64,000 nucleotides of DNA, taken from the IMG/VR virus record IMGVR_UViG_3300036719_002413. One strand, written 5' to 3'. A program made the position numbers and the translations under genes. This document shows positions 15,412-46,000 of the stretch, one piece after another; positions within the stretch are counted from its first letter, which is position 1; the number at the start of each line of letters is the position of its first letter. The stretch comes from an uncultured virus (IMG/VR IMGVR_UViG_3300036719_002413). Its lineage: Duplodnaviria > Heunggongvirae > Uroviricota > Caudoviricetes. The notes beneath the pieces are model-generated. The model did no database searches. It had not been told where the DNA came from and was given only the letters and a program-made list of their open reading frames with translations.

Positions 15412-15896
15412 GAGATAAGTTCAAGTCTGCCCTAACAGTTCCAGAAGGAACTAATAATAACTATGCTGCAGTTAATCCTAACAGTAGTGCTCGTGGAAAA
15501 TACCAAGTATTATGGAAAGCGCATTCTGATGCTATAGCTAAAATAACTGGTGTAAAGAAGGAGGAAGATTATTTGAAAAATAATGTAGCTCAGGAACAAT
15601 ATATGGATTACTTATTCGATTCATATAGTAAGAATGTACCAACATTAAAATCTAAGTTTCCTGGAGCTAGTGATGAAGTCTATATGGCTATGGAACACTT
15701 CTTAGGATTACCTGATACTAACTTATACCTACAAGCTTATCAAAGCGCTAAGCGTAATAACTTAGGAGACATTGAAGCACATAGTACAGCACAACAAGCT
15801 TTAAATCAAGCTTATTTAAAACGGTATGGTAAAGTTTATAAGAACTCTACTGTATTAGATTACCTAACACAATTCGCAAACACATTCAATAAATGA
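15324..15896 (+). CDS. lysozyme/transglycosylase-like domain, probably expressed by frameshift from 13123..15411
   Basis: PEGTNNNYAAVNPNSSARGKYQ resembles the SLT-like E-S..NY.A.N..S.A.G.YQ motif. It lies in the -1 frame relative to the upstream ORF, and the annotated N-terminus (MACRNCRWYIW) looks like off-frame sequence. Confidence 0.6.
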   Translation: MACRNCRWYIWKPHSTSGTAGQSTGGNTIRDKFKSALTVPEGTNNNYAAVNPNSSARGKYQVLWKAHSDAIAKITGVKKEEDYLKNNVAQEQYMDYLFDSYSKNVPTLKSKFPGASDEVYMAMEHFLGLPDTNLYLQAYQSAKRNNLGDIEAHSTAQQALNQAYLKRYGKVYKNSTVLDYLTQFANTFNK

Positions 15897-18800
15897 GACC
15901 AGAAGTATTAAAATACTTATTAACAGGACAAACGCAGACAGGTGTAAATAATACACTTGATGCAATGCAAGCAACTAACAATGTACCGTATTATTCAGGA
16001 CCTTCACCTGAAGGATTTACTACAGACCCAGGTTTAATTCAAGATAGCTGGTCACAGGATAATACTCTCAATACATTCTTAAATGCTATGGCTAGTATAA
16101 ATACTGGATCATCAAAAACTCAACTGCGTAATCTTAACTACAACAAGATGAAGCAGATGGAGGAGATTTATGATTTACAGGATCGTATGCAGAAGGCTTC
16201 TGAGAATAATGATTTAGTAACAGCTGCTTCATTACAAGATGAGTTAAGTAGAGCTAAACAAAAAGCTCAAGAGTTTGACCAGGAAACTGCTACGAAAACT
16301 ATGGAGCTAGAAGAGGATATTAAATACGGTTCTGGTTTAACTGGTTTAATTGCTGGGGGTGAAGAAGATATAGCTCGTAGAAATAAGGATATAGATTTAG
16401 AGTTTAAATTACTCTCTGATATGTTCCAGCGTGATGCTAACACTTCAGCATTCAATGCTTTTAAGTATGAGTTTGGTAAAGACTTTGGTAGCTCCTTTGG
16501 TACTTTAGGTGCTACAGTTGCTGCTGCATTTACTCCTAAACTTATTAAGGCTGCTATAGCTAGATTAGTTACAGCTGAAGCTGCTGGTTCTATGGCTCCT
16601 GGTATAGGTAATGCTGTAGCTGCTGGTGCTACGTTAGCTGTGTTAGCTGGTGATCTGGCTGTACAATGGAAAGCTCGTGTACAAGAGACTGAGGCTGAAG
16701 AGAATGATGCATACGAGGAAGCTGTTTCTTTACTTACCCAAGATTACATGCTCAAGAATAATATCCAGGATATGGCTGAGCTTGAAGATCCTAAACACCA
16801 AAGAGAGTTAAATAAACTTTCAATGAAAGCCCATGAAGAATTAGAAGGTTTGCGAACTAAGAACATGGGATTAATGTTTGGTGATGTATTACAATCTATA
16901 CTTGCTGTTACACCTTTTACTAAGGTAGGTAACATAGCTTTGGGTACTAATCGTTGGATGCGTACTGGATTAAAGATTGGTGCCTTGACCTTGAATACCA
17001 ATATGGAAATGAACGAGGAGGGTAGTCAATGGTTATTCACTAGACAATATTTAGATAAGGTATTAGGTAAGGACACAACAGGATTAAAGGATACTACTAA
17101 CTATAAAGATGATAGCTTCTTAGGTTTACTTAGTCAAGCTTCCCAGTTAGCAAGTGATAGATTTGAAGTAGAGAAGGCTATCTTTGGTAATGGTAACTCT
17201 TCATTGTATACTAACAGCGAGTTTATATCAGCTGTAAATGCTGGTGCTCTTGCTGCTGGTCCTATGATGACTTTACCACAAGCTGCTAGTATTATTAGCG
17301 ATCACTATGGATATGCTAAAGCTAAATCGTATTTAGGTAGAGCTGCTAAAGAGCAAGCTAATGGTGAGTACTTAAGATTTAAGTATGACACTTATGCTAA
17401 GTATATTGATAATGATAAAGAGGATTACTTCATAGATTCTATTAGATCATTATCTAAAATCGAAGGTAGTAATATTACCCCAGCAGATGCTGAGAAAGAA
17501 GTATTAAGATTTAAGAAAGCTAAGGCAGAGTTTAATAAGATAGATGATACACAATATATTTTCAATCTTATTGAGAAGTATGACTTTAGAGGTATTAGTA
17601 AAGATGATCGTAAGAGAGCTATTAAGAATAGCTTAATGATTGGTGAGTATACTGAGCAGATAGCTGATTTATTCTCACTTAAGAATGATGAGATTAATCC
17701 TTACAGAGCTATCATAGATGAGCCTACTGATAATGAGGCTAGAACTAAATTACTAAGTAAAAGAAAAAAGTTATTTGATTCATTATTAGATCCTGAAAAG
17801 GCTAAGAATTTAAATCTTAATGAGATCTATGATGATCTTGATATTCCAATTATACTTAAAGAGAGAGCTATAGCTAGACTCTTAAAAGAGAATGAGCGTA
17901 TAGCTTCAGGAGAATTCAGTAAAGAAACTAGAGAGAATAATAAGCTAGCTAGATTAGGTACTGAAGCTCAGAAGTCTGGTTTGTCTTATAAGTATGGAGA
18001 CCAATATGTTAAGAATTCTAACATGGTTGGTATGGATAATAGTGTTAAAGGTGAGAAGGAATATATCGAGTTCTTAGAAGATCTCGAAGAAACCTCATTG
18101 CTTAGAGACACTGATAAAAGAAGTAACGTACAACGTATGTTAGATCTTGAGGTACTACCTCAGGAGATATTAGCATATGCTGAACAAGTTAAAGCTCCTA
18201 TAACTAAAGAGCAGAATGATGAGATAGTAAAACGTATAGGATTAAAAGCTTCAGAAGTATTTAATAAAGCTTCAGAGGTTGAAGATTCTCTTGGGGATAA
18301 GAATAAGATAACTACCATTGATGAGTTAAACGATTTAATGGATAGTGCTTATATTGAAGATCCTGATTACTATCAGAAGCTTAAAGCTTTACGTGAAGAG
18401 TATACTGATGCGTTAAAGCTACAAGATAGGTTACAAGAAGCTAATTTAATTAGAGAACCTAAAGGTATATCCACTTCAAAGGTAGATAAAGAAATCACAT
18501 TCGTATGGGATCGTTTCTTAAAAGAAATGGTTGGTGAAGTTGATAAAGCTAATACTGATAGTGATTACTTAGATGATTCTGTAATAGCTGCTTTAGAAAA
18601 GAAACTTAAATGGCTTAAGGAAGTATTAATAGAAGAGAAACAATTATATACTAATCCTGATAAAAAGATATCAGTGGAGTTAAAGAATGCTATTGAGCAA
18701 CTTGAACAAGACTTAGCTAACGCTAGAAAAGCTATTAGAGCTAGACTTGCTGATAAGGAATTAGCTCAAGAAGAATCTTATACCATAGCTACTACGAATA

Positions 18801-21800
18801 CATTAATACCTATGGGTATTACGTATACACCTAGTACTGATAAAGATGCGGTTGTAAAATTCAATTTACCTTTAACTGATGCTATTAAAGACGCTTTAAA
18901 AATATTCATTGATAGTGTATTAGTACAAGATGCTACTGGTAAATATTACTTACATCACAGCTATGCTATAGCTATGAATGAGTTTGTTTATAGCTCAATG
19001 ACAGATCCTAATGACCCAGTTAAATATTGGAATCAGCTAATTGATTTTAGAAATGCTAAGATTGATGATCTGTATTTATATTGTAAAACTAAGTTTGAGG
19101 ATTTAAATTTATATGGTACTCCTTTTCATTTAGATAAAGCATTACTAGCTAAAGATCCTGAAACATTCTTAACTCAATATTTACTTTCTGTTTATAGAAG
19201 TACCTTCTTGGATATATCACATCCAATTAGTCAGTATATAAACACTAAGGATATAACTATTATAAATAAAGCTTCTGATGATTCTTTAATCAATCCTGAA
19301 GATGGTACTGAGAGTACACAACAGATAGCTGACTTACGTAATCTTTTCTACATGTTAAATGTAGTTAAGAACATACCTGGTAATTATAATAATCCTGCAG
19401 TTAATACTAAGGATATGTTATTGAGTGAGGTAAACTTATTCTCTACTATCACAGAATATATACCAACCAAACAACAACTTGTAACATTACGAGAGTTAGT
19501 TAATTGGTATAAAGGTAATCCATTAACTGGTCCTGTAGCTGTTGTACTTGGTTATGCTGGTAGTGGTAAGACACAAGTTGTTACTAAGTTATTACTTAAG
19601 CTATTAAATATTGATAGTACTAAGATAGTATCATTAGCTCCAACTAAATCTTCTAATAAGAACTTAGCAATAGCTTTAGGTAAATCAGACCCTAATGATG
19701 CTAATCCGCTTGAGACATTCTTAAATACGGATTCACAAGTACTAGCTGACTCACCTATCATTATAATTGATGAGGCTGGGTTGTTATCTGATGAACAATT
19801 AGACAAGATTAATAGAAAGATACTTGAAGCTCAAGCAATAAACCCAGCAGTAAAGGTTGTAATGATGGGCGATCCAACACAGTTATCTACTTTAACTATA
19901 CCACCATTTATCGCACAACCTATTGGTGAATATCCTTCTAAAGAGTTTATGTCACCATTAACGATTACATATCGTACTGATGATATTGATATAATTAGAA
20001 CACAGAAAGAATACCGTAATAAGGTAAGTGTTGTTGATAAGGTAACTACTGCATTAACTTCAGATAAAGCTAATGGTAGCTTTGGAGTTAATAGTAAAGT
20101 TGACTTATACAATATGCTTATCGCTAATCGTGGTAAAGGTAGACATCAATTAGTTATTGTTAACTCAGCTAAAGAAGTACAAGAAGTAACTAAAGAGTTA
20201 GCTGACTTGGGTGTAACTAATGTTGATGTGCTTGAGATACATGAAGCTCAAAGCCATACTGTAGATGAAGTATATGTTATGCTAACACCTACTGGTAAGT
20301 TAGCTCCTAGACATGATGGTACCGTAGCTATGTTTAACAAAGCTATGTATGTAGCTACATCTAGAGCTAAGAACTTAGTAGTTATACATTCACCTACAAC
20401 TAAGTTTACTAATGATAATAAAACTTTAATAGCTGCTGAACAACGTAAGGCACCTACTAAGGATGAGATTAGTAACTTTGTTGGTGAGCTACAAAAACAA
20501 TATGATAATATATCTAACAGTAATCTAAATGCTAATTTAAAAGCTGCTGTAGTTAAACCAGCTGCTAATGATCCAGCACAAACTAATTCTGCTAATCCAA
20601 CTAATCCTAAGCCTGCAGATCCTGATAATGAGGGTATTGTAGCTGATGATGATATGGATCAGGATAATGATACTGTTGATTTAGCTAGGGAAGAATTAAA
20701 TAAGCCTGAAGATTTTCCTATAGAAAATACGCAGGAACCACAAGTTATAATTAATACTCATAACTTGAAGTATCCACAATACTTCTCTATTAAAGATAAG
20801 GATAAAAAGATTACAACAGGCTCTCAAGTACAATATGTAAAGTACTGGGATAAGGCTAACAACAGAGCTGGTCTAGCTATCATTGCTCAGGGAGCTGATG
20901 GTTCATGGTATCTGATTGGTGTAATAGGTAAGGATGATATAAATGAAATAGGTAAGTATAAATTACCTAAGGAAGTTGTAGATGCTATTACTAGCCCTGA
21001 GTTTCAAACTAGGGATGCTGATGATATTGAGTGGTCTGAATTCAAGGGTAAGGAAGGAAAATTAACTACAGATCTGGGTGATAAGAATCCTCCATTGCTT
21101 GTAGGACAAATTGGTAATGCTACACCTAAGTTCTTTAAGTGGGGTCCTTTAAAAGACTTTAGAGAGTTCTTAGATACTATGTATGTAAAGATTATGAGTA
21201 CATACTATAGTGATAGTGGTAACTTAGAATCATTTAATCCTATTGACGATAAATACAATTGGGAATTAAAGATATATAATAATGCTGAGATAATTAAACA
21301 AGGATTAAATCCTCGTGTAGTTAGACCTGGTGTACCTTACCAAGTAATTAAAATTACTCATAAGAGTGGTAAAGAAGAAGTATTGTATGTACCATTAACT
21401 ACTAGAAGATTAAACTTAAATTTAGATTCTTCTGTTAATGAGTTACGTGGCTTCTTAAATAACATAAAAGATATTCATAAGATACTATCTGTATTAGATG
21501 GTGATACTAAGATACGTTGGGGTGGACTAAAGGTTGTACCTGGTTATGACTATGTTAATAAGTCAACTGGTAAGACTATTGGTAGAACTCAAGCAGAGAT
21601 ATTCTCTAAGTTACTTAATCCTAAGTCTGAGATTTCTAAGAAGGTAATAGAAGAGCTTACACGTAAAGGTGTTGATATAGCTACCTATAATAATCTTATT
21701 AAGAGTATTCGTACTGGATTATTTAACCCATTAGCTTTACACGAGTATGGTTATGATCCTAACAATGCTGTTATAAATGATGAGGGTACTGATGAGGATT

Positions 21801-24800
21801 TCATGTCTAAGTATTTTATTACTGGAGACAAAGGTTCTAGAAGAGCAGTTGAAGGTCCAGTAAAACTTGGTGAGAATAGTTATACAGCACACCCTACATT
21901 AAAAGGATTCTATTTAATAGAGAAGGGTAATAAAGGATTAAAGGTTTGGCGTAAAGTTTATAACTTTAAAGGCTTACATATTAAGATTGATATACCTGTA
22001 GATAAAGATCTTGCTACTGGTAAAGAGCGTATGCCTGTATATGAAATACACTCACAAGAGTTTATAGATCAGAATGGTGGTAAACGTAATTACAAACGTA
22101 TACTAGATGGTGGTACTAAAGTTGAATCTGGTATTATCCATAATATGGATATTGATCCTTCACAATATGTTGAAGAGTTAGTTATTGATGGTTTAATTAA
22201 TGAGCGTGGTAATCATGGTCCTGCAGCTAAAGCATTTGATTCTATAGCTAGGGCTAACTCATCTGTGTTCATTGGTGATAAAAGAATATACTTAAGACAG
22301 ACTAAACAAGAATATAAAGATGGTGTAGCTACTGGTCATAAGTATTTCTCAGGATTAAACTTATTATATAACCCTGGTAATGGCACTAAGGCTCATTACA
22401 TACACAGCCATAGACCTACTAAAGGCGAACCATCTGCAGTAACTGTAGTTGAGGAATTAGATCCTATCACTGAAGAAGTATTAGATGCTTTAGTGGGAGA
22501 TAATGCTTTTGATAATAATGGTGATAGTATGGTTAATAGTGGCTTTGGTTTAAGATTACCAATGCATACTAAAACTGTAAATAGGTTTCCTACTGAAACT
22601 GAACAAGGATATAAACAAAGAATTCAAGATGATCTGATAGATGATTTTGAAACTTCATTAATGGGTATTGAACCTACTAGTATTACTATTAACAATGTTA
22701 AGCCACCAATTAAAGAAACTCAACCTATAGAATCTAAAAAAGCTGATATAGAAAGAAGAAGACAAGAGGAGTTAATTAAAGAAGTGAGGGGATATGATTA
22801 TGAAATAAAGTATAGACCTGATGTAGCAGCAAGATATGATAAAGCTTTACAAAACTGGATTGATATTGCTGATATAACTATTGAAGGGAGAAAAAAAGGT
22901 TTGTATTCAAATCCAGAAGCTAATAAAGGTTATGTAGATAGTAGAGAAGAAAATATTGAAGCAAAAAGAAAATATTTAGAAATTAATGCTAAATATGATG
23001 CAGAATTAGCTGCTTTAGAAGGTGGTGTTTCTACAGATGCTAAAGCTGATATAGAAAAAAGAAGACAAGAAATATCTTCATTTTTTAATAAAAATGATTA
23101 TACAACAGAAGTTACTCTTGAAAATGATGAGTATACATTAAAAGTATATGATAAAAAAAGTACTTTCTCAAATGTTCCGATATTCAAGTTTCAAGGAAAT
23201 ATAATAGACATAGATGGTAAAAAATATATTAACGTTTATGAAGTAAGTACTAAAAAGGAATATCAAAATAAAAAAATAGCTACTAATTCATATAAGTATA
23301 TATTAGAAAATTTACCTTCTGGCGTAAAAGGTTTATACTCTTTTTCAGAAATGAGAAAAGGTGTAATGGTACCTAATATATATAAAACTTTAAGTAAAGA
23401 TTATACTGTTACTACGGACTCTAAAGGAAATATTCTTGTTAACTATGATGCAGAACTAGCTGCTTTAGAACAATCTATCCCTAATGATGTAGCTCATGTA
23501 CCACAAGATCCTAGACCTGCTAATGATTTCGCTGCTGATGGTAATGATATTGATTTAAGCTGGGATGATGATACTGATAGTTTTGATTGGACAGTACGTG
23601 ATACTACAACTCCTACTAATTGGGTTACACCTAGTTTAGTTAGACAAGCAGCATCAGAAATATTTGGTAAGGACTTTGCTTCAGATCCTGATAAATTATT
23701 ATTCTTATCTAAAGCTGAAATGATTAGACGCTTTGGTAAGGATGTGTGGGGTAGATATGAGAAGGGAGTTATTTACTTAATGACTAATGCTCAAGGTGAA
23801 GCTTCAATAGATGTATTGAGACACGAGGCTTTCCATAGAGTAACACATGCTTACTTTAATGCTGAGCAACGTAAAGAGATATATAAGTTAGCTATACAAG
23901 CTAACCCATTATTAAAGGATAAGACTAACCGTGATATTGAAGAGTGGTTAGCAGACTCCTTTATGTCTTACCTAAGACAGCCAAACTTTGTTAGTAGGCT
24001 ATTACATAGTTTCTTCAGGAAGATAAAGAGTATATTTAATATTCAATTATCTGCTCAAGATAAGATTGAAAGTTTCTTTGATCGTATACAGAAAGGTAAC
24101 TTTACTTATGAGACTGCTAATGAAGCTGTTGAAGGTACTGGTTTAAATAAATTACTTATACATGCTTGGTTTGGTACTCCAGAAAGACAGTACAAGGATT
24201 CAGCTGATAATTATAACTTAGCTCAAGTAGCTATATTAAAATCATTAGCTAGTAAAATATCCCCAGACTCTCCTAGGAACGATCAGTCTAATGGTATAGC
24301 AATGTCTATTAGAACTGGGGCTAATGGTAAGGTATATTACAATGGAGCTACTATGACTCCAGAGGATGCTAAGTTTGCTGTATATGCGGATTTGAAAGAT
24401 CAGTTTAATAACTTAAAAGATAAAGCTCCAATATGGTTAAAGATATTGGTTGGCGGTATAACTGAGAAGGAAGTTAAACGTGCTAATATGATATACAATA
24501 ATGTATATGATTACTTAGTACAAAGTACTGATAGTATTAACTTAGATAATTCTGACGAGACATTTGGTGATGATCCTTCTTTAAAGGATGAGATCGAAGA
24601 GTCTTGGCGTATAAATTACGAGTCACAGTTACTTGCTTCTGTTAAAAACTTAATGTCGGCATTGTTTATTAAACAATATGATGCTGAAGGTAATGTACTT
24701 TTAAAAGAATATATTCCTAGAAGAACAGTATTCTATATAAGTTTAAAACTCCTTAAAGGTATTGAAAACTTTGATATGAATGCTATTCAAGCTATGTCTT

Positions 24801-27800
24801 TGAATGCTACTAAGCTTGGTTGGAAAGATGACTCTGGAGATCCTAAAGTAGGTAGAGTGTATGACTTCTTAGTTGATATAATTAGAAGAGCTGAGAATGA
24901 TAAATATACTAGTGAGGTTACTACTGAGGTAAAGAATGGTGTATCAAGATTAAGATACAAAAAAGCCTTCTTACCAAGTAACCTTAAAATAACTCAACGT
25001 GGTTTTAAAGATGGTGGTTTATATTATAACAATAACTTAGTTGTTGGTACTATCAAAGGTGTAGACTATAAGTTTACTCGTAGGGATGCTAATGGTGTTA
25101 AGGATGCTAATGCTAATAATTATATTAAGAGATTAGTAGCTATGACATTAGCTTTAGATGAGCCATTGTTATTTGATATACAAGGACAGTTAGTTCCTTC
25201 TAATAAATTTACTGAACAACAGTTGGCTAATATGTATGCTACATTATTAGCTAGAGAAGAAGCTAGAAACTTAAGTGCTGGTATACAAGCTGGGATATCC
25301 TCGTTAGTAGAACGTCACCCATACATGGGATTGACAGATGTTATATTAGAAGAAGCAGAAGATCCTAACTCTAGAGAAAAGCCTATAGTTACATTAAAGA
25401 CTAGATATATTCCTAATTCTGTATTAGGTGGTGAACAAGCTGTTAAATTATCTATTGAGGATGGTATTCTATCTGTATTGAGAGATGATCCCCAAGGAGC
25501 TATAATTAGACAAGCCCAAAGCTTATTAGAACTTGTAAACAAGTCTACTGATGTAAAGGCTAATAAGATTAGTACTAATAGAGAAACTGTTTCTAAAGTA
25601 TTTAATATGTTAGGATTAGGTAAGTTTAAAATCTTTAACTTAACTCCTATACAGAATGAGATAATTATTAATGCTTTAAATGGTATATTAAATAATATAA
25701 TAGGCTTTGTAGATAAGAAAGAATCTTTAGAAGCTATTGAGGATGCATTAGCTAACGATAACAATAATCGTATTAAAGAGATTATGGATACTTTAGCTAT
25801 CTCTCAAGGCTTTGGTGAGAACAGTAGATATTTAGATTCTAAGAACAGAAGTAGTTATAAATTTGTTAAGGGTAGTTTCTTAACTAGAATGTTTGAGAAG
25901 TTCAGAAGGAATCTTGATGAGACTGGTGAGACTGGATTTAAAAGACCAGATCATATTGATCCTGAATCTATTGGATATAAGTTGTATTATAAATACAATC
26001 CTTTCCTTAGATCTAAAGGTAGAGTCATTAGAGAACTGATTACACAAGAAGCTTTAAAACAACGTTATAAGAATAACGTTATGTTTGAAGATGCTGATAC
26101 TGCTACACCTTACAAGAATGAGGGTATTAGTGGTTGGGTAGTTAGAACATTAGTGTTTGGTTTCTACAGTACTATGTTAAAGTCTGATAAGAACCCAACA
26201 TATATACAATCACCATATACACCATCTAACAAACCTCAGAATATGTCATTTAGAATTCCTGCTAGTAATATTAAAACTATGAGGGAAGATATAAAGAGTG
26301 CCATATTACAACAGGTTGAAAGATATAGATGGTATGAAACCTTAGCTAAAGATCATAACATATTTATAAAAGGTATACCTTTGAAAGTACAAGTACTTGA
26401 AAATGGTACATATAAGTATGTGTGGACTGGTAAGTTAAAGGGTGGATTTACTTACTTAGCTGATAATAAAGTACTAGATCAGGAGTCTTTAGAAAGAGTA
26501 GTTGATAAAGTAATTGATGATCTTGATACTAGAGCTTATAAATTTTATGAGCGTATTGTAAACAATAATGCTTTAGTAGCTAAGTTAAAGCGTGGTCTTG
26601 GTGATAAGAATTATATTGAACCTTACGAGGCTAAGAGCTTTATAAGTTACTTAGAAAGAGTAGGTTTATTAGATGATGCTAAGATTGATAGTCTAACTAA
26701 GATATTCAATAAGAACTATAAGTATAATGCTAGTTCTAAATACTCTCCTGAAATTGATAGAGAATATAATTTGAATTTATATATCATTATAGCTGAGGCA
26801 TTTAAACAGAACTATGTTAATGGTCACTTCTTGAATCAGTTTCAAATGTCTGATAGATCTTTGTATGCTAATCCTACTACACAAGTTAAGAGAGCTAGTG
26901 GAGGAATATCTCCTGGTGATTCACCAAAGGTAGATACTTCTAAATCTGGTAATGGTATGGTTGATAACTTTAATATCATTGTAGCATCAGATCAGCATGC
27001 TGTATTTAATATTTATACAGATGTAGCTAAAGCTTATAATGGTTTATATGGCTTACAGATAGATAAGACTGATGCTCAGATGTACTACTTACCTAAGTGG
27101 AAAGAGGAGCTTGAGAAAGGATATGGATATGAGTATGGTATTAAGGGAGTTTTAAAACCTGTACTGTACTTTATTGATAAGTATGGTGTTACTAGATTTA
27201 GTAAAAACTCTGGTATTGAGTTATCAGATAGTTTATGTGCTAGGTTTCCTGAGTTAGCTGATCTCCGTAAAGATATGGAAGACAATAACATTATGGAGTT
27301 TCATCATAGTTCAGCATTCAAAGTAGGAGCTCCTGCTCGTTTATTAAAGAATGGCGAGTCTATATCAGATCACATAGCTACAACTACTAGACAAAATGGT
27401 AATGGTATTATAAATGTACCTTCTAAATATTATAGTATACAATCTAACCCAGCAAGTTCTGAGGGTGATGTAACTAACTTTAGTCAGTTAACTTATTTCT
27501 TAAACGTTAATAAGTTAAATACTGAAGCTACTAAGATGGTATATGATATTGATGCCTTGATAATGCGTACTAACTTTAATGCTTACTTAAGAAAGTTAGG
27601 TAAGTATGTAGGTAATAAGTTTGAGATTAACGAAGATAAAGTTAGAAATGTATTAGCTGAAGCTGTATCAGGTATGGCTGGTTATGAAAGGTTTGAGGAG
27701 TTTATTCGTGCTAAAGATGGCAGAGGTAATTACTTGATTAGCTTAAACTTCCCAGCATTACGTAATAGGGTTGAGATAAGCTTAATGAGTGGTGCTGCTA

Positions 27801-30800
27801 ATAACTCTGTAAAGTCTATTGTAGGTAGTGGTAATAAATTAGTATTACAAGCTGATCGTGGAGTTTCAGTATTTAGAATTGGTGGTCAGGTTAAGTTATT
27901 TAATGATTTAACAGAAAGTGAGAAGAAATCTTTTGATGCTTTTAAATTATTACCCTATCATGTTAAGGAAGTTTTAAAGTTAAAAGTAAATTCTTATTAC
28001 TTAAATAATAACTCATATACTCACTGGGAAAGTCATAAAGATATGACTATGGAGTATACCGCATTATCTGATAGTGAGAAAGAACTTATTGATACTCTTA
28101 ATACAGATAGGATGTTAATTCCTACTAGATTAAATATGGTATCAGATAACTCTACTATGGATGGTCGTATAGCTGAAGTTATAGCGCCTGCTTGGTGGAA
28201 ACAATATATGAAAGCTAAGGGTAGTGAAGTTGATACTGGTGATATTGTTCTAGTAGATGACTTCTTAACTAGGTTTGCTTTTGGTGTACGTATCCCTACT
28301 ACTGGTATTCACTCTGCAGTACCATTTAAAATTGTAGGATTTACTGACAGTAAGAGTAACATCTTAGTAGCCCCAATGGAACTTGTAGCTTTACACGGAT
28401 CTGACTTCGACGTCGATTCATTGTTTGCTATTCACGTTGAGGTATTAGTTGATCCTAAATCAAGTTTGAAGAAGACTGGTGTTAGGAAAATGATTGAGTT
28501 AAAAGATCTGAATGGTAACGTTATAATTAAAGAAGGACAAAGACTTGGTTGGGATGCTGACATAAACTTTGATAGCTTTAGTATGATGATGGCTTCTCAA
28601 AAAGCTACAGAAAGTACTTTTAATTCTGTTGAGTTTGATCGTCAGATAGGTCTTATTAAATCTTTAATAGATTCTATTAACCGTAACATTTCTGATAATG
28701 AAGATGCTGAGGCGTTAAAAGAACTTAAATCTCATTTAAAATTAGCTGAAAGTGCTTATGTAAAAACATTACAGAACAAACGTAACTTCTTAATATCTTG
28801 GATATTACTGCGTAAACAGAATAGGTATGACATGATGCAGCCTATTACCTTTAATGCTGTTAAAGAAGACTTCTTCGATCCTAATGAAACTTTATATCAC
28901 CCAACATCTCCAATAGATATTTTCGGTGATGATGGTAAGTTAACTCCTGAGTTTTTAGTAGAGTTAGAAAAGGGAACATCAACTGAAAGAGTTATTAGTA
29001 AGTTTAAAGAGTGGGGTGTTACTGCAGATAATATACAATTAGATGTAGATAATAATAGATTAAATCTATCTGATGAGTTACGTAATACTATATTAGCTGA
29101 TAAAGATATATCAGTTAAAATGTTATTGAAAGTTATTAATAATAAGATAGACTTTGATGTACTCAAAGATCTAAATGATATGAATGATAACTTACAATAT
29201 TATTTAGATAACTTCTCTGGAGTATCATTAACTGGTGCTTTCGCTAACTTCGTAAAAGCTTTATCTTACATATACTTCTCAACACCAGTTGGTGCTAAGT
29301 TTGTATATAATAAGAATTCAGAGAATGCTAAACCATTAGATATATCATTTAATGATAAAGTATATGGTAGTATTGCTGAGAGAGAAGATAGACCTAATGG
29401 ACGTAAGATCTGGGAGTTATTAGATACATTGATTAACGGTGCTATTGATAACGTTAAAGAACAAGTATTAGCTATACTTAATGCTACTAATAATACTGGA
29501 GCTACATTAGCTACGATGGTATCATTAGGTATACCAATGACAGACATTGTATCTTTCCTAAGACAACCAGTTATTATGAAAGATACTGCTAGATTAGGAA
29601 CCTTTGATGTTAATTATACATTAGGTGAGCTTCAAAATATTAAAAAGAGTATTGAAGCTAAGTTACAGGGTTTAGGAGTTGATACTAAAACAATCAAAGA
29701 TGATACTATCACATCTAAAGAATTACAAGATGTATTAGCATTAGTAGGTTATGACTCTATGGTAAGCTGGGAAGGGTTACCTAAAGAAGCTATTATAACA
29801 CAATATAAAGTTTTAATAGCTTATACTAAACTATTCCCAATAGCTCAGAAGATTAGTAAGACAGCTGATGCTACTAATATCATTAGAGATTTCCCTGTTA
29901 CAGAGGAAGAAATTGCTAAGGTACAAGATAACTTAGAAACAATATCTAAAGATAGTGGTATTGAAGGTGGTTCTATATTTGATATTACCCACATTAAAGA
30001 GTCTAAACAAATCTTTGAAGAGACTTTAGAAGTTAGAGAACAAGTATTACCACAGCGTAGTAAAGCTTGGAAAGAAAGATTAGCTGGATTTGTTAACAAG
30101 TACTTAAACAGTAATAGAACTTCTAATGAAGATCTTATACATGTATCTAGAGAATTTGAATTGTACTCATTATCATCTTTAACTAGTTATGATGAGCAAG
30201 ATTTAAAATGGAAAGAGCCTGTAAAGATAACTAATAAAGTTAATCCTGATAGATCTTTTTACTTATATGGAGTTGATGCTTGGATACAAAACTTTGCTGA
30301 GACTTTAAAAGAGTATAAAGCTAAGTATCCTGATAATGAATTCTTGAAGCTCTTAGAACCTAAGATAAATAACATAGGTACTTATAAAGGTGCTAATGGT
30401 GAGATTCGTATCTATTGGGTATTAGGATCAGTTCAACAAGAACCTGGTCGTATTGCTACTATACAAGTATCTTTCATGGAGTTACCTGAAGAGTTTCAAT
30501 TAGCTTTACTTAAGTTTTCAACATTGTCTACAGGATTGGAGTTTGGTTTTAGAGGATTCTCTACATTAATACTTCCATCTTTGTTAGGTAAGGCTAATGC
30601 AGTATACAATCAATTCAATACTGCGATGTTTAATGATGAGGCTTTTAATAACCTAAGCGATCACTTTATACTACCATTTCTACTTAGAAACCAAGATTAT
30701 GTTAGATCTGCTTCTGCAGTATTTAAGAATAGTGGTCATATCTATACTAGAAACAATGCTAAGTTTAATGGCTTACTAGGTGGAAGAGAAAGAAAGAATA

Positions 30801-33800
30801 TTGATGCTATAGTATATTTTGGAGATGATCGTGAAACAGTTGTAAATAAAGAAACTGGTGAGGAGATGAAAGTTAAAAGCTCTACACCACCATTGTTCTT
30901 TAAGTTTTCTAACTACCCAGCATCTTTATTGTATCGTGTTGATATGGATGAGACTGCTAAAACAGCTTACTATGTCAAGGTAGCTAATCTTAAAGATAAC
31001 CAACTATATAAGTTCTATTCAGCTAGACCAGACTTATTAGCTGGTAAAGCTTATAGTTTAAAAGAAGCTTTCTCTAATAAAGGTAATGTGTTTAGTGTTA
31101 CACCATTAGACTTCAATAATGATACTATAGAAACTACTTTAAAGTTTGTTACTGATGAGAAGTTACCTGCAGTAGGTGATGTTATTCAAGTGAAGTCAAT
31201 GCTTGATATTCATAATGAAGTGTTGATACCTTATCAGGTTAATAGTGTAAAAACTAGTGATGCTTCAGAACAAATTATATCTACTGGTTCTGGTGAGAAT
31301 ACTGTAAACAATAACTTTAAAGTATATGGTTCTGTAGAAGTTAATTTAACTAAACAGAAAGCTTCAGAACAAAGAAATGTTAAAGATAGTAATAAGGTAG
31401 TTGGTTCTAGAGTAGTTAATAAACTTCTTAGTAAATTAGCTTCTAAACTGAAGTTTGAGTATGAGGTATTAGACTTTACTAATAGTGAGTTAGTTAAGTC
31501 GTTAGGTTTAAATCCTGATATATATGGATTCTTCCATAATGGTAAGGTATACATAAACTCTAATAAGTATAGTTTAGAAACTCCTATACACGAGTTTGGT
31601 CACGGACTATTAATAATGATTAAGTCTAAGAACAAGCTTCTATATGATAACTTAAAACGTAATATACTGGATAGTCCTATCTTAGCTGAGATTAAACTTA
31701 GCTATCCTGACCTCTCATTAGAAGATCAGATAGACGAGGCTATAGTAACCGCTATAGGACGATATGGCGTAGGATTAACCTCTGGTTGGACTAATACCCT
31801 TATAAGTGCTGTAAAGCGCGTATATCAAGCTATAATGCGTGTAATAGGATTATATAAACCTACCAATATTACTGAGTTAGATCCTCAAACAAGTATCTCT
31901 AAATTAGCTGAACTGATGTTAAATGGTCCTGAGTTCTCGGATACCATTAGTAATGTTCAAGGGACATCTGAGTTAAGGTACTTAAATAATAACTACACTA
32001 TTACTAAACAGACTGGTATTGAAGGAGATACAGGATATACTGTAGTATCTTCTACTGGTAGATCTGTAGTATTAGATCGTGTGAGTACTTTCTTAGGTAA
32101 CTTTTTAAGTTACAATAGGAAGTTAACTCAAGCTGAGGTAATGGCTAAGAAGTACTATGGTAAGGTAAATACCTTATTAGGTAGGCCTGTACAACATCCA
32201 GATGGGACTGGTACACTAGTTACTTATGAAGAGTTATTAGACTACTTTACTAAGATTGGTGAGCGTAGTAGAATAACTGGTAAAATTATACATAAGATTA
32301 TACAGATGTATACTGTAGGTAATAGTGATCCACAGTTTCAAAAGTTTGGTCAAGAGAAAGCTGATTTACTACAACAATATATAACTTTAGGTGGTAAAGA
32401 TTCTGACTTCAATTGGATTGAGGGTAATGATACTTATTTAACTGCCCTTATGGAAAGGTTGAATATACAACCTACTGATAAGATACATTCTGAGTTCTTA
32501 GTATACAATGAACAGTTAAACTTGGGTGGAACAATAGATATGTTAATAGAGCATGCTGATGGTACCTTCTCAATTATTGACTTTAAGACAGGTAAATCAT
32601 TTAACCCTAATGAAGATTTCGGTGAAATGAAGTATGCTGAGCGTACTGGTATGTTATTTAATTCTACTAATAACTATCAAATGCAGTTAGGTACTTATGC
32701 TTTACTTGTTAAATCATTATATCCTAATGCTAGATTTAGAAATATAACATTAGTTAATTTAAATAAACATACTACTACACCAGCTTTATTAGAAGTTGAT
32801 AGGTCCTCTGTATTATTAAACTTAGCTAGTTACTTTACACATAATCCTAATGACTTTATTAAGACTAATAGTTATCTGTTAAATCATAAGGAATATGTAG
32901 CTATATCTACTAATGTATCTGATCGTATTAATGAAGAGTTAAAGAAAGGAGCAGCTTCAGTATTCGCAGCTAAAGAAATTGTATTACAAAGATTATATGA
33001 GCAATTAGATACTCTACAAAGATCTGGAGGTAAGGATAAGCAACCATTAACTGATGCTTATATTAATTCTAACCCACTAGTTAAAAAGCAGTTAGAGTCA
33101 TTAATATTACAGATATCTGAATTAGAAGGTGCTGAATTTGGATCTATGACAGATGTTAATTCTGATATAGATATAAAAGAAACCTATACTTCAGTAGGAT
33201 TTAATGTTAAGAATCCGCTCTTGAAGACTTTCATGAAGCTTCGGACTAGGGCATTACAACTTATATCAGAAACTAGAAGTAAGTTATTTAGAGAGTCTGA
33301 CTCTTTACTTAAAGATGTATTAAAAGAATACTATGGTAATAACTTCTTATCTATGATTGGTGGTAAGATAGGTTTAAATATGCTTAACTATGAGAAAGCA
33401 TTTAAATTTATGTGGGATACATCTGAAGGGGATGGTATGACTATTAAAACTGAAACTAGTACTGATTGGGCTTTATTATCTACTGCTCAGAAGAAGTATA
33501 ATGTATTCTATAGAGATAGTATTAGAGATATGTTATTCTCCACATTATCAACTACTAGAGGTTTAAAGTATTATAAGAATAAGTTAGATAATGTTGATTC
33601 AGACTTATTGATAGGACTATTCACTAAACAAGAACTTGCTGCTAAGTACCAAGCTAAAATAGATATGTATTTAGATATGGAACCTGTTGAGAAGTGGGAA
33701 GCTGAGCTTGGTAAGTATTTTGTTTACACTGAAGACTTCACACCAAGATTACCTAAGCTTACAGGAGAGTATAGTATTACTGAAACTAAGGAGATTATTA

Positions 33801-35635: not shown

Positions 35636-36859
35636 TTACATTTGAATATTATTACCTGCTTCTGCAGCTTGTTGTGCAATCATATTATTAAGCGCTTCCT
35701 CGTCTAATAAAGCTTGGTGGTGTGCATTCTCTGCTGCAGCGAGTTCAGCTTCATGGTCCCATATTACATTTATATGATTACCCATACCATGACCAAAATG
35801 AATATTAGGTTCTTGCGGTACAGGTATATCTTGTATAAACCCAGGTTCACCATTTAAAGTAGTACCCTTTCTTCTAGATTTAGCTACTTTAATCTCCTCT
35901 TTAGTAGGTTCTTTAGTTTTAATAAATATTCTTGATTGATATCCTTTTAAATAATAAGGATTTCGATCAGTCATTTGTTTATAAGTACTTTCAACCTTAC
36001 TTAAAAATGAAGCTTTATTATCAATCTTATTGTATAAGTTTAGTAATTCTTCTTGAGTTAGATTTTTATCTTCCTGATAAATTAAAAAGTCAGCATATCT
36101 TACAGGATTGTTTACTTTAAAAGTATTTAAACAATATACATTATAAGATTTATTTATGTAAGAACTTGTAATAAGATCGAAATAACCTAAAGCCTCATTA
36201 TGGTAAGACTTTAAAGGAACGTGTAACTTTAAATTACAATATGGGTTCTCTACAAAGATACTAGAACAACTAGTCTCAAAATAATTACCATCATACATAT
36301 GCTTATATGGATTATTATTATTAAGCATTACTGGCATTGTTTCTAAATCTTCTACTTGAGGTAATTTTTTATTAATTGGTATCTTTTGTAATGAGTCTAA
36401 CTTATAACTTATTCTAAACATATTACATATATGATCTATAAAAGACTTATCAAGGATAACTAACTTATAATTTTTTAAGTCATTTCCTCCTATATTATTT
36501 ACATATGTAGTTTCTTTCCTACTAGGATCTACTATACCAAACTTATTTAAGTAAAAAGCATAAAATATCTTATTTAAATAAGAATGAAACATATTTTCAT
36601 AACATTTTACTATGGTAGTATAATTATTCATATGTTCTCCTAAAGTAGATCCACTACCTTTAACTAAATCATATGACGGGAATTTAACAAAATACTTTGT
36701 GAAATCACATAAATATTCTATCTCAAAATTATCATATAAAAGGTCTAAAAAGTCTTGGTAAATATTCTCTATAATATTAGATAAATTAATTAGGTTAGCA
36801 GCATTATGCTCTTCACTTTTTATGCCTTCTGATAATAATAAATCATGATTTTTTAACAT
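35636..36859 (-). CDS. hypothetical protein
   Basis: Long ORF; the likely start is MLKNH at 36859, overlapping the RNR stop. Confidence 0.65.
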   Translation of the reverse strand: MLKNHDLLLSEGIKSEEHNAANLINLSNIIENIYQDFLDLLYDNFEIEYLCDFTKYFVKFPSYDLVKGSGSTLGEHMNNYTTIVKCYENMFHSYLNKIFYAFYLNKFGIVDPSRKETTYVNNIGGNDLKNYKLVILDKSFIDHICNMFRISYKLDSLQKIPINKKLPQVEDLETMPVMLNNNNPYKHMYDGNYFETSCSSIFVENPYCNLKLHVPLKSYHNEALGYFDLITSSYINKSYNVYCLNTFKVNNPVRYADFLIYQEDKNLTQEELLNLYNKIDNKASFLSKVESTYKQMTDRNPYYLKGYQSRIFIKTKEPTKEEIKVAKSRRKGTTLNGEPGFIQDIPVPQEPNIHFGHGMGNHINVIWDHEAELAAAENAHHQALLDEEALNNMIAQQAAEAGNNIQM

Positions 36860-38700
36860 ACTCCTCCAGCACAAGCTATTTCTTGTGCAAATTTTGTTTC
36901 ATCTTCTTCCTCTACTAATAATGTAAAATCTATATCTTCTGGTATTTTAGATAACATTTCATGATATGTCTTTTCATCTATATCTTCAAATGGTGTTTCT
37001 TTATAAGTACCACCATCAAAAGGTAAGATAGCCATACCATTAAATATATCTCTATTTTCCCACATCCAAGATTTTACTTCATCCCATTCACCATCTTTTA
37101 CTGTAATAGTTGTGCTAACATTATGAGTATTGGCACCATTAATATGACCAGGTTTAACCCAGTTCATAGTAAAATGTTTAACTCTTTCAAGTAATGATGT
37201 TGCGGTTTCATTATGTCTAGTAACAGCACCTGTTGGAGCTTTACATGGTATTTCAACACAATAAGAACCTGGTAATCTAACTAATGGTTTAATTAGTTGA
37301 GGATAATTTTTTGATAAGAATTCAACTAATGGGTTGTTACCCGATAGTTCCATTCTTCTAATATAATAATCACTATGCCACGCATGTATGCCTGAACTAG
37401 TACCTAATACACATGATGTAGTACCACTAGGTTTAACGCATGTTAATCTAGCTGCTTGGTTTATACCTATTATGGTTGAAACCTCTAGATTAACTTCTTT
37501 AGCTAAATTAGCTAAACTTTCTAAGTTATACTTCTCAGCTTCTTTAGATGCTATACCAGTTTGTCCTAAACCTAGCAAAGCGTCCTTTTCAGTAGTTCTC
37601 TGCCATATAGGTCTAAGGTAATGGAAGTTAGTGAAGCCTGCTTGTAAGGTACCTAAGAATGCAGCAGCTCTAACTCTAGCTTGAAAGTCTTCTAAATCTA
37701 CTATATCACTAACATTTATCTCACAAAGATTACAGAATTGATATGGTCTAAGACCTATTTCAACACATGGGTTAGTTCCCCATCTTGAATCATTTGTAAG
37801 ATAAATACCAGGTTCACCAGATTTATTAGTTTCTATTAGAGACCAGTATTCATCAAACTCACTCTTTTGAATTCTGTTCCTAATAATAATAGCTGAGTTA
37901 TTAGCTCTACCTCTTTGCGGGTTTAACTCCCACCAGTTTCCTGACTTACAGGTCTTCATCTTCATATCATCGAAACTAAACAGAGCAATCATAGCTGCTC
38001 TTCTAATTCCACCTGCTAATACAGCATCTGCTATGTAGCATAATATATCATGTGCTTCTATAGGTTCTAATTTAGAACCATTCTCTTTAGAGTTTAGTAC
38101 TTCTTGAATAAGAAATAAACATCTCTTTAAGGGATCTGGTCCTGGAGCTTTACCTCCTGAGGTTACTAGCCTAGTACCTTTTTTTCTAATATCACTAAAA
38201 TCAAAGATGGGTAAAGAGTTTGAGTATCCTGTATAAGATTTTAATAAAACCTTTACAGCATCAGCCCAACCCTCTATACTATCTTGTACTAAATACCTTC
38301 TTTTTAAAGTAGGCTTTATTATGTTTGGTAATTTTTCGATGTCACTATATTGTACACTATATCCTACCCCAGTTCCTCCTAAAAGTAAGAACATGGTTTC
38401 TGAGAAGGAATAGATAGAGTCAATAGGTAAGTAAGCACAGTTGTAAATTCTACTAGGATTACGTGTAGCAGCATCTCCAGCGAACTGAAGTGCTCTCATT
38501 GATGGTAATACCTTTTTAGCTCTTACTAAGTGCATATGATGTACTATTTCCCTACTGAGCATAGGGTATTTTTCTATCATCATATTTTCATACCTATTAC
38601 ATATTTCTTCCCAAGTTTCCCTACGCTTGAGGGATGGTATATACTTAGAGTACTTATCAAAAATGTTTAATTGAGAAAGTAGTTTTAATCCTTTATCCAT
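36853..38700 (-). CDS. nrdJ: class II (adenosylcobalamin-dependent) monomeric-type ribonucleotide reductase
   Basis: Motifs LPSMRAL, YNCAY, GGTGVG, GGIRRAA, TNPCVEI, FCNLCE, CVKPSGT and C-terminal CAGGVC; no small subunit gene nearby. Confidence 0.9.
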   Translation of the reverse strand: MDKGLKLLSQLNIFDKYSKYIPSLKRRETWEEICNRYENMMIEKYPMLSREIVHHMHLVRAKKVLPSMRALQFAGDAATRNPSRIYNCAYLPIDSIYSFSETMFLLLGGTGVGYSVQYSDIEKLPNIIKPTLKRRYLVQDSIEGWADAVKVLLKSYTGYSNSLPIFDFSDIRKKGTRLVTSGGKAPGPDPLKRCLFLIQEVLNSKENGSKLEPIEAHDILCYIADAVLAGGIRRAAMIALFSFDDMKMKTCKSGNWWELNPQRGRANNSAIIIRNRIQKSEFDEYWSLIETNKSGEPGIYLTNDSRWGTNPCVEIGLRPYQFCNLCEINVSDIVDLEDFQARVRAAAFLGTLQAGFTNFHYLRPIWQRTTEKDALLGLGQTGIASKEAEKYNLESLANLAKEVNLEVSTIIGINQAARLTCVKPSGTTSCVLGTSSGIHAWHSDYYIRRMELSGNNPLVEFLSKNYPQLIKPLVRLPGSYCVEIPCKAPTGAVTRHNETATSLLERVKHFTMNWVKPGHINGANTHNVSTTITVKDGEWDEVKSWMWENRDIFNGMAILPFDGGTYKETPFEDIDEKTYHEMLSKIPEDIDFTLLVEEEDETKFAQEIACAGGVC

Positions 38701-39324: not shown

Positions 39325-39681
39325 CTATTCTTTTATAAAAATTTGCATTTCAGTATCTTTATCTGGGGAAATAGCTCTTTCCGAATCAAACTTTTCAGGA
39401 AATCTGATCTTTAGCTTGTCACAATTCTTCTGTAATATTACACTGATATCCATCTTATTAAATCTTATAAATTCACTAAGATAGAATAGTAAATCACCTG
39501 TCTCATCCATAAGTTGTTCTTGTGAGAATAATTTCCCATAAGCCATTTTCTTTTTGAACAGGTCTGTAATCTCTCCTAATTCTGTTACCATACCAAATAG
39601 GGTGTGGTTTATATTTTTTTCTGTATCATGTAGATCAGCCATAGTACGGCTGGTCTTAGTACTAAATTCTTCAAAAGTCAT
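39325..39681 (-). CDS. MazG-like nucleotide pyrophosphohydrolase
   Basis: Motifs GMVTELGEITD, DETGDLLFY and N..KL..RFP. Confidence 0.85.
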   Translation of the reverse strand: MTFEEFSTKTSRTMADLHDTEKNINHTLFGMVTELGEITDLFKKKMAYGKLFSQEQLMDETGDLLFYLSEFIRFNKMDISVILQKNCDKLKIRFPEKFDSERAISPDKDTEMQIFIKE

Positions 39682-40391
39682 AATTGTATTGGTTCTAAAT
39701 ATTGAAAATTAGAATCCGTTTCTAAGGGCTTTTCTAGAATTTTAAGTAAATTATAGTTTGTGTTAAATTTGTTTATACCTGAATATTCGCCATAGTATTT
39801 GATATACTCTCCTAGAATTAATGCTGGTAGACTTAACTCTAACCTAACATTATTTACTAATAAAGCTTCTACATATCTAATACCTCTACCTGGTAATCCT
39901 TTTATATTATCAGACCTATCTCCTGTTATCATGCTAGACCAGAAAGCTTTTTCAGCATCTTCTGGTGTAGTACTTATAAATGTTTTTTTAACTGGGTTAT
40001 AATGTAGTCCTGGTAATAGTAAAAGGTCTTTATCAGTAGATACTATAATAGTATTATCATTCTTATACATGTTCAATAAGTCATCAGCTTCATATGGAGC
40101 TTTATAAGTAAAGTTCCAATTATCTACTAGATGATTACGAACATCTCTGAAAAATTCAGGTAATTCTTTTTTCACTCTATTAGCTTTATAATCAGGCGAA
40201 ATTTCTTTTCTGAAATTGGGGGAACCTGTTAAAAATCCTAAATAGTGTGTTGCTTCTGTTACTTTAAAAATCTCTTGTAAAAAAGTATCCGTAGAATTTA
40301 TAACGGACTCAAGAGTGTTTTGAGGGGTATTTGCTTTTTGATATGAGCAAATATACATTAAGAAATCACCGTCAATTAGGGCGGTAATCAT
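39678..40391 (-). CDS. 5'-3' exonuclease (T7 gp6 / PolI 5'-nuclease family)
   Basis: Motifs LIDGD, NFRK...YKANR, EADD, STDKDL and GDRSDNIKGLPG.G. Confidence 0.9.
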   Translation of the reverse strand: MITALIDGDFLMYICSYQKANTPQNTLESVINSTDTFLQEIFKVTEATHYLGFLTGSPNFRKEISPDYKANRVKKELPEFFRDVRNHLVDNWNFTYKAPYEADDLLNMYKNDNTIIVSTDKDLLLLPGLHYNPVKKTFISTTPEDAEKAFWSSMITGDRSDNIKGLPGRGIRYVEALLVNNVRLELSLPALILGEYIKYYGEYSGINKFNTNYNLLKILEKPLETDSNFQYLEPIQL

Positions 40392-40412: not shown

Positions 40413-40877
40413 TTAAGTTTCTTTGTTTACTATCTTCTCAATAGCTTCCCTTACATCTTTTTGGTTTCTTGGTAAGAATAGTTTATATTTCTTTTCTGAA
40501 GTTGATAAAATATATTTAAATAACTTCCATCTGATTTTAAAGGCATCTGTTTCAAATCCTTTAACTTCTATTATCCAGTCCTGATCTATACCGACAAAAT
40601 CAGGTTTATAAGTTGCTCCACGTATTTTTTTACCATCATATTCGAATGGGGGAATAAGTTCGAATGATGTGGGTTCGTAAGCAAATTTTAAACCTGATTC
40701 TAACAGTAGCTTATAGGTAAAAGCTTCTAATGCAGAGTGAAACTTTATACCATCTATTACAGTTATTCTAGCATTCTTGACTTTCCTATTATCAACCTTA
40801 GTTGCCTTAGGAGCCTTTGGTGGTTTTTTAACCATTGTATCGTTTCTAATTTTTGGTTTTTTGTGTCTTCTTCTCAT
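40413..40877 (-). CDS. PD-(D/E)XK endonuclease (DUF1064 / T7 endonuclease I-like)
   Basis: Motifs DGIKFHS.LE, YEP and TYKPDF...IIEVKG. Confidence 0.8.
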   Translation of the reverse strand: MRRRHKKPKIRNDTMVKKPPKAPKATKVDNRKVKNARITVIDGIKFHSALEAFTYKLLLESGLKFAYEPTSFELIPPFEYDGKKIRGATYKPDFVGIDQDWIIEVKGFETDAFKIRWKLFKYILSTSEKKYKLFLPRNQKDVREAIEKIVNKET

Positions 40878-44339: not shown

Positions 44340-44344
44340 ATTTT

Positions 44345-45988: not shown

Positions 45989-46000
45989 ATCTTTTTTTGA

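Follow-up and report, generated by a model that had tools for sequence, protein, structure and literature searches.

In polymorphic toxins a conserved motif (VENN in CdiA, PxxxxDPxGL in Rhs proteins) sits where a swappable C-terminal domain begins, and short motifs within genes are the crossover points between phages at the tail-fibre 'His box' of T-even phages and in modular exchange at linker sequences of phage genomes. Integron cassettes, which are bounded by attC, comprise entire genes, and an integrase moves them where attC folds into hairpins. Polyvalent proteins, giant multi-domain proteins of phages and conjugative elements, are described as highly mosaic; they combine helicase, nuclease, HExxH peptidase-like and small enzyme domains, and their HExxH peptidases have been proposed to cut them into units, at sites left undefined in the part of the article considered here (Iyer, Burroughs, Anand, de Souza and Aravind, 2017, PMC5512222). 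Here we analyze two adjacent units inside a giant open reading frame (ORF) of a 64,000-nucleotide (nt) stretch of DNA from an uncultured virus of the Caudoviricetes (IMG/VR record IMGVR_UViG_3300036719_002413), hereafter called the window. Each unit carries a payload between two conserved sequences, joint A and joint B, and an original prediction had taken the units for exchangeable in-frame modules shuffled at these conserved ends, a view now supported by relatives of the locus and by 49 clusters of different payloads. We consider, with a probability of roughly two in three, that the two units are widespread in-frame domain cassettes of giant phage proteins, exchanged by short-homology recombination at A and B.

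The cassettes resemble each of the known systems in part. As in polymorphic toxins, a short conserved peptide and DNA motif lies at the exchange point and the modules belong to a common pool; however, polymorphic toxins have a single junction, a C-terminal module and an immunity gene alongside, whereas A/B cassettes are internal, two-sided, in frame with downstream domains, devoid of a partner gene, and carried by giant proteins of lytic phages. The His box likewise provides short conserved in-gene motifs as swap points for protein segments, but the segments that it swaps are those of homologous adhesins, while A and B swap unrelated folds of very different length. With integron cassettes they have in common a conserved bounding recombination element, many unrelated payloads and an organization in arrays; unlike these, they lie inside an ORF and are translated, with no hairpin above shuffles and no integrase among the window ORFs scanned with PHROGs.

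Like the polyvalent proteins, the giant ORF joins several unrelated enzymatic domains in one phage polypeptide (a helicase, a PD-(D/E)XK nuclease and a predicted GNAT-like domain), and its architecture fits that class as outlined by Iyer et al. (2017, PMC5512222). Where the hub of polyvalent proteins is a zincin-like metallopeptidase (MPTase), it has an HEAFH motif that is without a Pfam peptidase match. Delivery into the host with the DNA, packaged in the virion, is a further feature of that class; the giant ORF follows virion structural genes. In the text of that article considered here no conserved joint between domains is described and the word 'linker' occurs 0 times (PMC5512222); as far as this text goes, the present boundaries differ from those of polyvalent proteins in consisting of a bipartite, codon-fixed motif on which exchange breakpoints fall. 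The A and B motif strings returned 0 papers in a literature search that left subscription journals and bioRxiv supplements outside, and a search on the topic by title and abstract gave nothing relevant. Mosaic polyvalent proteins and motif-guided module exchange are known, and what appears to be new is this pair of joints.

The two cassettes of the window and their relatives

The host ORF and the tract that holds the cassettes, 262 amino acids (aa) long, are made up as follows.

15893..35545, + strand: giant ORF hosting the cassettes, 6550 aa
22700..23485, + strand: 262-aa tract, consisting of KPPIKETQPIESK, unit 1, linker, unit 2 and QSIPN
22727..22774, + strand: joint A copy 1, IESKKADIERRRQEEL, equal to the family consensus DNA at 37/39 positions
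22775..22981, + strand: payload 1, 69 aa, helical, with homologues between A and B in P0003, P0007 and L023
22982..23020, + strand: joint B copy 1, INAKYDAELAALE, equal to the family consensus DNA at 37/39 positions
23021..23041, + strand: B-to-A linker GGVSTDA, 21 nt, its final 16 nt inside the block identical to L004
23026..23470, + strand: block 100% identical to positions 3132-3576 of L004/L005, 445 nt
23042..23071, + strand: joint A copy 2, KADIEKRRQE
23072..23431, + strand: payload 2, 120 aa, predicted GNAT-like alpha/beta domain
23432..23470, + strand: joint B copy 2, ILVNYDAELAALE

The repeats are as they had been reported: the two copies of repeat A (22739-22767 and 23042-23070) are identical at 28/29 nt (97%) and those of repeat B (22994-23020 and 23444-23470) at 26/27 nt, the latter being extendable to 39 nt at 87% identity, and unit 1 (282 nt), the 21-nt linker and unit 2 (429 nt) are all in frame. 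Degenerate codon patterns of A and of B give 2 matches each in the window versus 0 in 100 shuffles, and no further copy of either joint is present in its six frames. The two payloads had been judged unrelated, and we agree: their best local alignment covers 12 residues, with a score that is reached by 85 of 2000 shuffles.

A string KGLYS..E..KG is present in both payloads (22894-22930 and 23326-23362) as a marginal match, and the homologue of unit 1 in L023 is without the segment of about 17 aa that bears it. Inteins were considered and rejected: an intein has Cys, Ser or Thr as its first residue, a terminal His-Asn and a Cys, Ser or Thr following the element, whereas the units start with K or V and end in ALE, followed by G or Q.

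The units also differ in composition from the gene around them, in line with what had been noticed at the outset. Their GC content is 0.269 against an ORF mean of 0.323 (standard deviation 0.021), and their GC content at third codon positions (GC3) is about 0.10 against 0.214 in the remainder of the ORF; five of the eight runs of six or more A in the ORF fall within them, and the ratio of AAA to AAG codons is 25:4, compared with 274:251 elsewhere in the ORF (Fisher p = 3.7e-4). This low GC3 and AAA bias is shared with the ORF of L004, the background of which (GC3 0.119, AAA:AAG 170:30) matches the units, and points to the import of both cassettes from lower-GC3 lineages.

L004 and L005 are two IMG/VR contigs of another uncultured phage, in which the block corresponding to 23026-23470 (445/445 nt identical) lies inside a large ORF that is unrelated apart from this block; over 3.5 kb no further DNA similarity to the window is found. 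The shared block spans VSTDA, A and payload 2, and stops at the final base of B. A relative, P0002, is 97.6-98.2% identical to the window protein (P0001) over 6303 aa and is without the 262-aa tract, having at that position a Pro/Thr-rich linker of 15 aa, and the window and P0002 thus appear as a filled and an empty site. Relatives vary in their cassettes, as had been anticipated: P0002 has no units; P0003 holds a unit-1 type alone, 64% identical over 137 aa in a protein of which the remainder aligns only in two short stretches at 29-31%; and L004 holds unit 2 alone, in another protein. A homologue of payload 2 is found at aa 1723-1816 of P0004, right after the helicase of another giant protein and without A or B, so that this domain also occurs outside the cassette format. 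The same arrangement as in the window recurs, identical, in L001-L003, three IMG/VR contigs that stem from different metagenomes. A search of JGI metagenome contigs for empty-site DNA of the P0002 type gave 190 pattern matches, 0 of which were confirmed.

The stretch is represented in lake-water metagenome runs, and we mapped onto it the contigs (k=31) of four of these, which show presence and not absence. Contig depth peaks at the bins that contain A and B (in X17, 1383, 1923 and 960 versus 0-147 elsewhere), contigs end at 22768, 23020 and 23026, and lake contigs of other phages diverge upstream of 22727. Unit 2 is found in X17 at a depth of about 140 without the flanks of the window, and an X3 contig covers 22991-23794, running from B1 through the linker, A2 and payload 2 to B2 and on into 324 nt of the window's own flank. 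The joints listed in this contig mapping are other cassettes, of other organisms; no deletion variant of the window phage is among them. Within 22710-23114 depth rises 10- to 1000-fold at A and B, which behave as high-copy repeats.

The A/B family and the DNA of its joints

A search of IMG/VR with the pattern ADIE[KR]RRQE, degenerate at synonymous sites, retrieved the A motif in at least 121 stretches; the locus statistics given hereafter rest on 80 of these at least 121 loci, taken with 1.5-kb flanks and containing 82 A sites. An in-frame B-like motif follows 21-256 aa downstream of A at 74 of the 82 sites, and is exactly YDAELAAL at 46. Three of the eight sites without B are truncated by contig ends; in two, about 31 inserted aa interrupt B, and the other three have none. 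The 74 payloads fall into 49 clusters by BLASTP, in agreement with the expectation that the motif pair would bracket other domains.

The family extends well beyond these loci. A profile built from 24 units and compared with 1.84 billion proteins matched 659 representative clusters at E <= 1e-3, of which 121 reach E <= 1e-10; most of the matched proteins are 1000-6000 aa long, and a single one may have as many as six matched stretches. A word-based search gave 656 proteins, nearly all of them unnamed and free of Pfam domains. No family in Pfam, PHROG or NCBIfam covers the module. By regular expression, 122 of 220 proteins taken from the word-based and profile searches have one A-B unit, and in tandem arrays the gap from B to the next A is 9-21 aa in 23 of 35 cases, with intervening residues that differ in both sequence and length. 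The residues A, D, I, E, R, R, Q and E of joint A are invariant in 50/50 sequences, and Y, D, A, E and L of joint B are at least 90% conserved. Cassettes frequently lie just upstream of an HExxH module, and a few proteins with A and B carry PF18760 ART-PolyVal, PF08719, NUDIX or SF1 (superfamily 1) helicase domains, families that are characteristic of polyvalent proteins. A split B, in which YDAE and LAAL are separated by about 31 aa, is seen in P0003 (aa ~1341-1385), L064, L077 and L124; the insertion reads Y[VI]DAVKKG..EQA..GRK.S.AYA[EK] and recurs in these four contexts.

Prokaryote contigs (596 Gb) yielded 28 pattern matches, of which four have B; the credible ones are low-GC contigs of metagenome-assembled genomes, and the others are unrelated GC-rich proteins. 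Prokaryote contigs being nearly devoid of A-B pairs, the module looks confined to phages. Megablast and tblastn searches of 50,697 GenBank phage records gave no match; since motifs of 15 aa are invisible to tblastn at this database size, this result is no proof of absence from isolates.

The joints are conserved not only as peptides. We compared the codons at 76 distinct A sites and 68 distinct B sites with the shares expected from each ORF's own usage (Ile and Leu codons of B being scored in 60 and 66 of them). In A, Ile is encoded by ATA in 69/76 cases (91%, against 39% expected), Ala by GCT in 96% (58% expected) and Leu by TTA in 85% (53% expected). In B, Ile is the rare ATC in 39/60 cases (8% expected) and Leu is CTA in 38/66 (10% expected), Ala2 is GCA in 77% (35% expected), and Ala5 and Ala6 are GCT in about 90%; B sites were picked at the protein level, so that codon choice had no influence on their selection. 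Between copies from the 49 payload classes, DNA identity over 39 nt averages 86% for A and 82% for B in pairwise comparison, and the consensus is kept across phages with GC contents of 0.21-0.47. Rare codons are fixed at set positions of the joints, and this constancy is conservation of the DNA itself and not codon bias.

Exchange at the joints and its explanation

Among the 74 units, 24 pairs have similar payloads between flanks that are both dissimilar, and 36 pairs have a flank in common and dissimilar payloads; in 10 pairs the segment from A to B is the sole shared part. In the pair L015/L016 the flanks are 81% and 86% identical at the DNA level and the payloads are unrelated: similarity stops at nt 1533, just past A, and returns 17 nt ahead of the core of B, and the contigs L044 and L053 repeat the arrangement of L016 identically. 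Over the family, 26 of 44 internal ends of high-scoring segment pairs (HSPs) lie inside the A/B zones, which account for 4.9% of the positions, and breakpoints scatter by a few to tens of bases around the joints, with no single fixed position. The support for this exchange pattern is unusually clean.

As to mechanism, we infer that recombination takes place inside A and B rather than merely next to them. In this account a cassette consists of joint A (xIExKKADIE[RK]RRQEEL), any payload domain of 21-256 aa, and joint B ((K)INAKYDAELAALE); A is translated into the opening helix of the unit and B into its closing helix, and both are near-constant as DNA too. When two phages co-infect, one crossover in each joint would replace, insert or delete the payload and, A and B being in the same codon phase and little varied, every product of such an exchange would stay in frame. 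The agent may well be the phages' own single-strand-annealing recombination, with a Sak4-like protein, an exonuclease and a resolvase; single-strand-annealing systems tolerate short, imperfect homology. Repeated crossovers inside the joints would homogenize the DNA of A and B, which would explain the fixed rare codons. In the window the cassettes would have landed ahead of the HExxH module, in a linker that is flexible and rich in Pro and Thr, and their payloads may be accessory functions on a protein that is packaged and ejected.

Several points weigh against this account. The difference between the window and P0002 did not go through the joints: the empty site contains neither A nor B, so that this gain or loss cannot have used them, and it looks like the replacement of a slightly larger tract through homology of the flanking gene. 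The fixed codons could reflect recent common descent of all A and B copies, with no role for recombination, and between unrelated cassettes the median longest exact run is just 19 nt in A and 14 nt in B, at the low end for homologous recombination. Moreover, the enrichment of HSP ends was measured on loci selected for containing A, several of the pair counts contain near-duplicate contigs, and all sequences are metagenome assemblies, in which short shared repeats invite mis-joins, the lake-water data consisting of contigs as well.

Our account has a bolder form, which we put forward tentatively: A and B may be a community-wide, codon-fixed and in-frame cassette standard, integron-like, the DNA of which is kept as portable homology arms, so that unrelated phages of freshwater and other waters would share at least 49 plug-in domains; giant proteins, probably ejected into the host, would receive these domains always in frame. 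The main rival reading, unlikely in our judgment, is that A and B are instead kept for a reason at the protein level, such as recognition or cleavage by the HExxH peptidase or a head protease, or a role as capping or docking helices, with whole cassettes moving by flanking homologous or illegitimate recombination and the sameness of their DNA a by-product of recent spread. The near-invariant A and B peptides, the tight B-to-A gap resembling a defined junction, the frequent position of cassettes directly upstream of the HExxH module and the P0001/P0002 polymorphism that bypassed the joints all agree with such a reason, as does the proposal, in the part of the article considered, of peptidase-cut polyvalent proteins (Iyer et al., 2017, PMC5512222). 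However, peptide constraint fails to explain the rare codons ATC and CTA, the swap in L015/L016 runs at the inner edges of A and B, where the ends stayed and the payload alone changed, and the residues between B and A are variable in sequence and length.

A dedicated enzyme, be it a site-specific recombinase, a homing-type nuclease or a reverse-transcriptase-based system, might recognize the DNA of A and B and move the cassettes, like an integron acting within a reading frame. The consensus kept across a wide range of GC contents would suit it, as would the energy of A-B duplexes, slightly below that of shuffles (2-3% of 300 reach the value); but a B1-A2 control scores like the A-B pairs, and the low energy (A1, B1 and A2 taken in 22718-23075, B2 in 23429-23473) is probably an effect of composition. 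Hairpins of A1, A2, B1 and B2 are no better than shuffles, 9-100% of which fold equally well or better, no integrase or homing nuclease was found among the window ORFs of at least 150 aa scanned with PHROGs, and the breakpoints vary in position, which together leave this explanation improbable. Slightly less credible again is that the swaps are artefacts of assembly, different phages having been joined at shared repeats of 30-50 nt: the joints are high-copy in the same samples, k=31 contigs break there and a chimera would stay in frame, but identical arrangements recur in L001-L003 from different metagenomes and in L016, L044 and L053, the left edge of the L004 block at 23026 is outside any repeat shared with the upstream sequence, the X3 contig joins the B1-to-B2 segment to the window's own downstream flank, and P0002 and P0003 were drawn from other data sources. 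A local tandem duplication of a single unit, with later divergence of the middles, would account for two adjacent units with common ends and for the 12-residue match around KGLYS..E..KG, but the payloads differ in length (69 vs 120 aa), one is predicted to be a helical bundle and the other a GNAT-like alpha/beta domain, their similarity is not significant, and each unit has its own relatives elsewhere; it has next to no likelihood, and the original prediction had already set it aside. These last three explanations fit poorly because of the replicate contigs, the lack of hairpins and of an integrase, and the unrelated folds.

We know of no prior explanation for how the domains of polyvalent proteins are reshuffled without breaking a frame of 20 kb, and the present pattern looks like a shared plug-in standard for such reshuffling. 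A and B form a concrete, searchable bipartite joint with exact coordinates, for which the relatives provide natural filled, empty and swapped alleles. The joint would allow phage domains without annotation to be mined by the hundreds through the boundaries that delimit them, and suggests a natural design rule for in-frame domain insertion into phage proteins. As a repeat class that breaks k=31 contigs, it will also fragment or mis-join phage assemblies.

Predicted payload folds and the host protein in its phage context

A model of unit 1, built from an alignment of 24 rows, has a predicted local distance difference test score (pLDDT) of 84.6 and a predicted template modelling score (pTM) of 0.71, and consists of three helices, A being the first and B ending the third. 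Foldseek found 0 PDB matches at E <= 1e-3 for it, giving generic helical bundles and coiled coils with template modelling (TM) scores of at most 0.47, and PHROG 1223 ('Lsr2-like') matches unit 1 weakly (E = 0.0019, in 1 of 24 units).

The AlphaFold2 (AF2) model of unit 2, from a two-row alignment, has a pLDDT of 76.7 and a pTM of 0.73 and shows helix A, an alpha/beta core and helix B. It has 31 PDB matches at E <= 1e-3 in Foldseek (TM 0.37-0.58), and most of those listed are named N-acetyltransferases; the top-ranked are Rv1916 and ICL2 entries, which presumably contain a GNAT-like domain, and viral GNAT families are found among its closest ESM Atlas clusters (score 0.92-0.95). Unit 2 is accordingly predicted by its model to have the GNAT alpha/beta fold. 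Payload 2 has no Pfam GNAT hit at E <= 1, and its homologue in P0004 scores 17 bits, compared with cut-offs of 20.7-27. The acetyl-CoA loop of GNAT enzymes has the motif Q/R-x-x-G-x-G/A, which is absent from payload 2, with QNKKIA in the window versus an intact-looking QGQGIG in P0004, and the copy in the window may lack activity or be divergent. A word-based search for free-standing relatives of payload 2 (66-210 aa) gave none. Downstream of its A site, L070 has a payload with a stretch ..EIQGIGLASAIY.. that resembles the GNAT CoA loop, and no B occurs within 500 aa; this may be a further payload of the GNAT type, in a unit of variant form.

None of 30 payload types of at least 60 aa reaches the Pfam gathering threshold (0/30), and the proposal that the payloads are effectors finds no support in them. 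ART-like, NADAR-like and zincin payloads, guessed by eye in other loci, are unconfirmed by the same comparison. Helices A and B had also been suggested to pair as a stalk or to mark cleavage sites for a downstream zincin; neither is borne out by the models, in which they are simply the first and last helix of each unit. A complex prediction for the A segment with the B segment (score 0.11, mark 0.32, controls absent) has no bearing on A-B pairing.

Pfam places an SF1 helicase at aa ~1215-1500 of the 6550-aa ORF (PF13604, 1.1e-12; PF01443, 2.2e-11) and a PD-(D/E)XK nuclease near its C-terminus (PF12705, 4e-9). A zincin had been placed about 120 aa downstream of the cassettes: an HEAFH motif does occur 118 aa past B2, but no peptidase family is found in Pfam at E <= 0.1 over aa 2170-2836. 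The ORF had further been taken for a virion RNA polymerase that is injected into the host, an identification that the sequence comparisons made here do not support: of all PDB chains, phmmer matched none to aa 2527-6550 at E <= 1e-3, PHROGs gave nothing for the same region, and no RNA polymerase family was found in the ORF by Pfam or PHROGs. Virion RNA polymerases of the crAss-like and N4-like type have a catalytic DxDxD motif; in the ORF a DFDVD is seen at aa 4171, as a motif alone. HE[AT]FH is kept in P0001-P0004, and D[FY]D[IV]D is similarly spaced after HExxH in P0002-P0004.

PHROGs establish the phage context of the window, with virion structural genes upstream of the giant ORF (phrog_28748 and phrog_9863). 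The zincin-like motif and the genes for a putative recombination kit of the phage's own are located as follows.

23822..23836, + strand: HEAFH zincin-like motif (aa 2644), motif alone
39678-40391, - strand: exonuclease (phrog_107, 7e-49)
40413-40877, - strand: Holliday-junction resolvase (phrog_190, 1.5e-19)
51047-51784, - strand: Sak4-like single-stranded-DNA-annealing protein (phrog_124, 1.1e-25)

The window also carries auxiliary metabolism genes on the - strand, at 36853-38700, 42618-48826 and 61877-63652. These include an amidoligase, a glutamine amidotransferase, a COOH-NH2 ligase and a RimK-like 'S6 glutaminyl transferase', together with a nicotinamide phosphoribosyltransferase (6e-156) and a ribonucleotide reductase.

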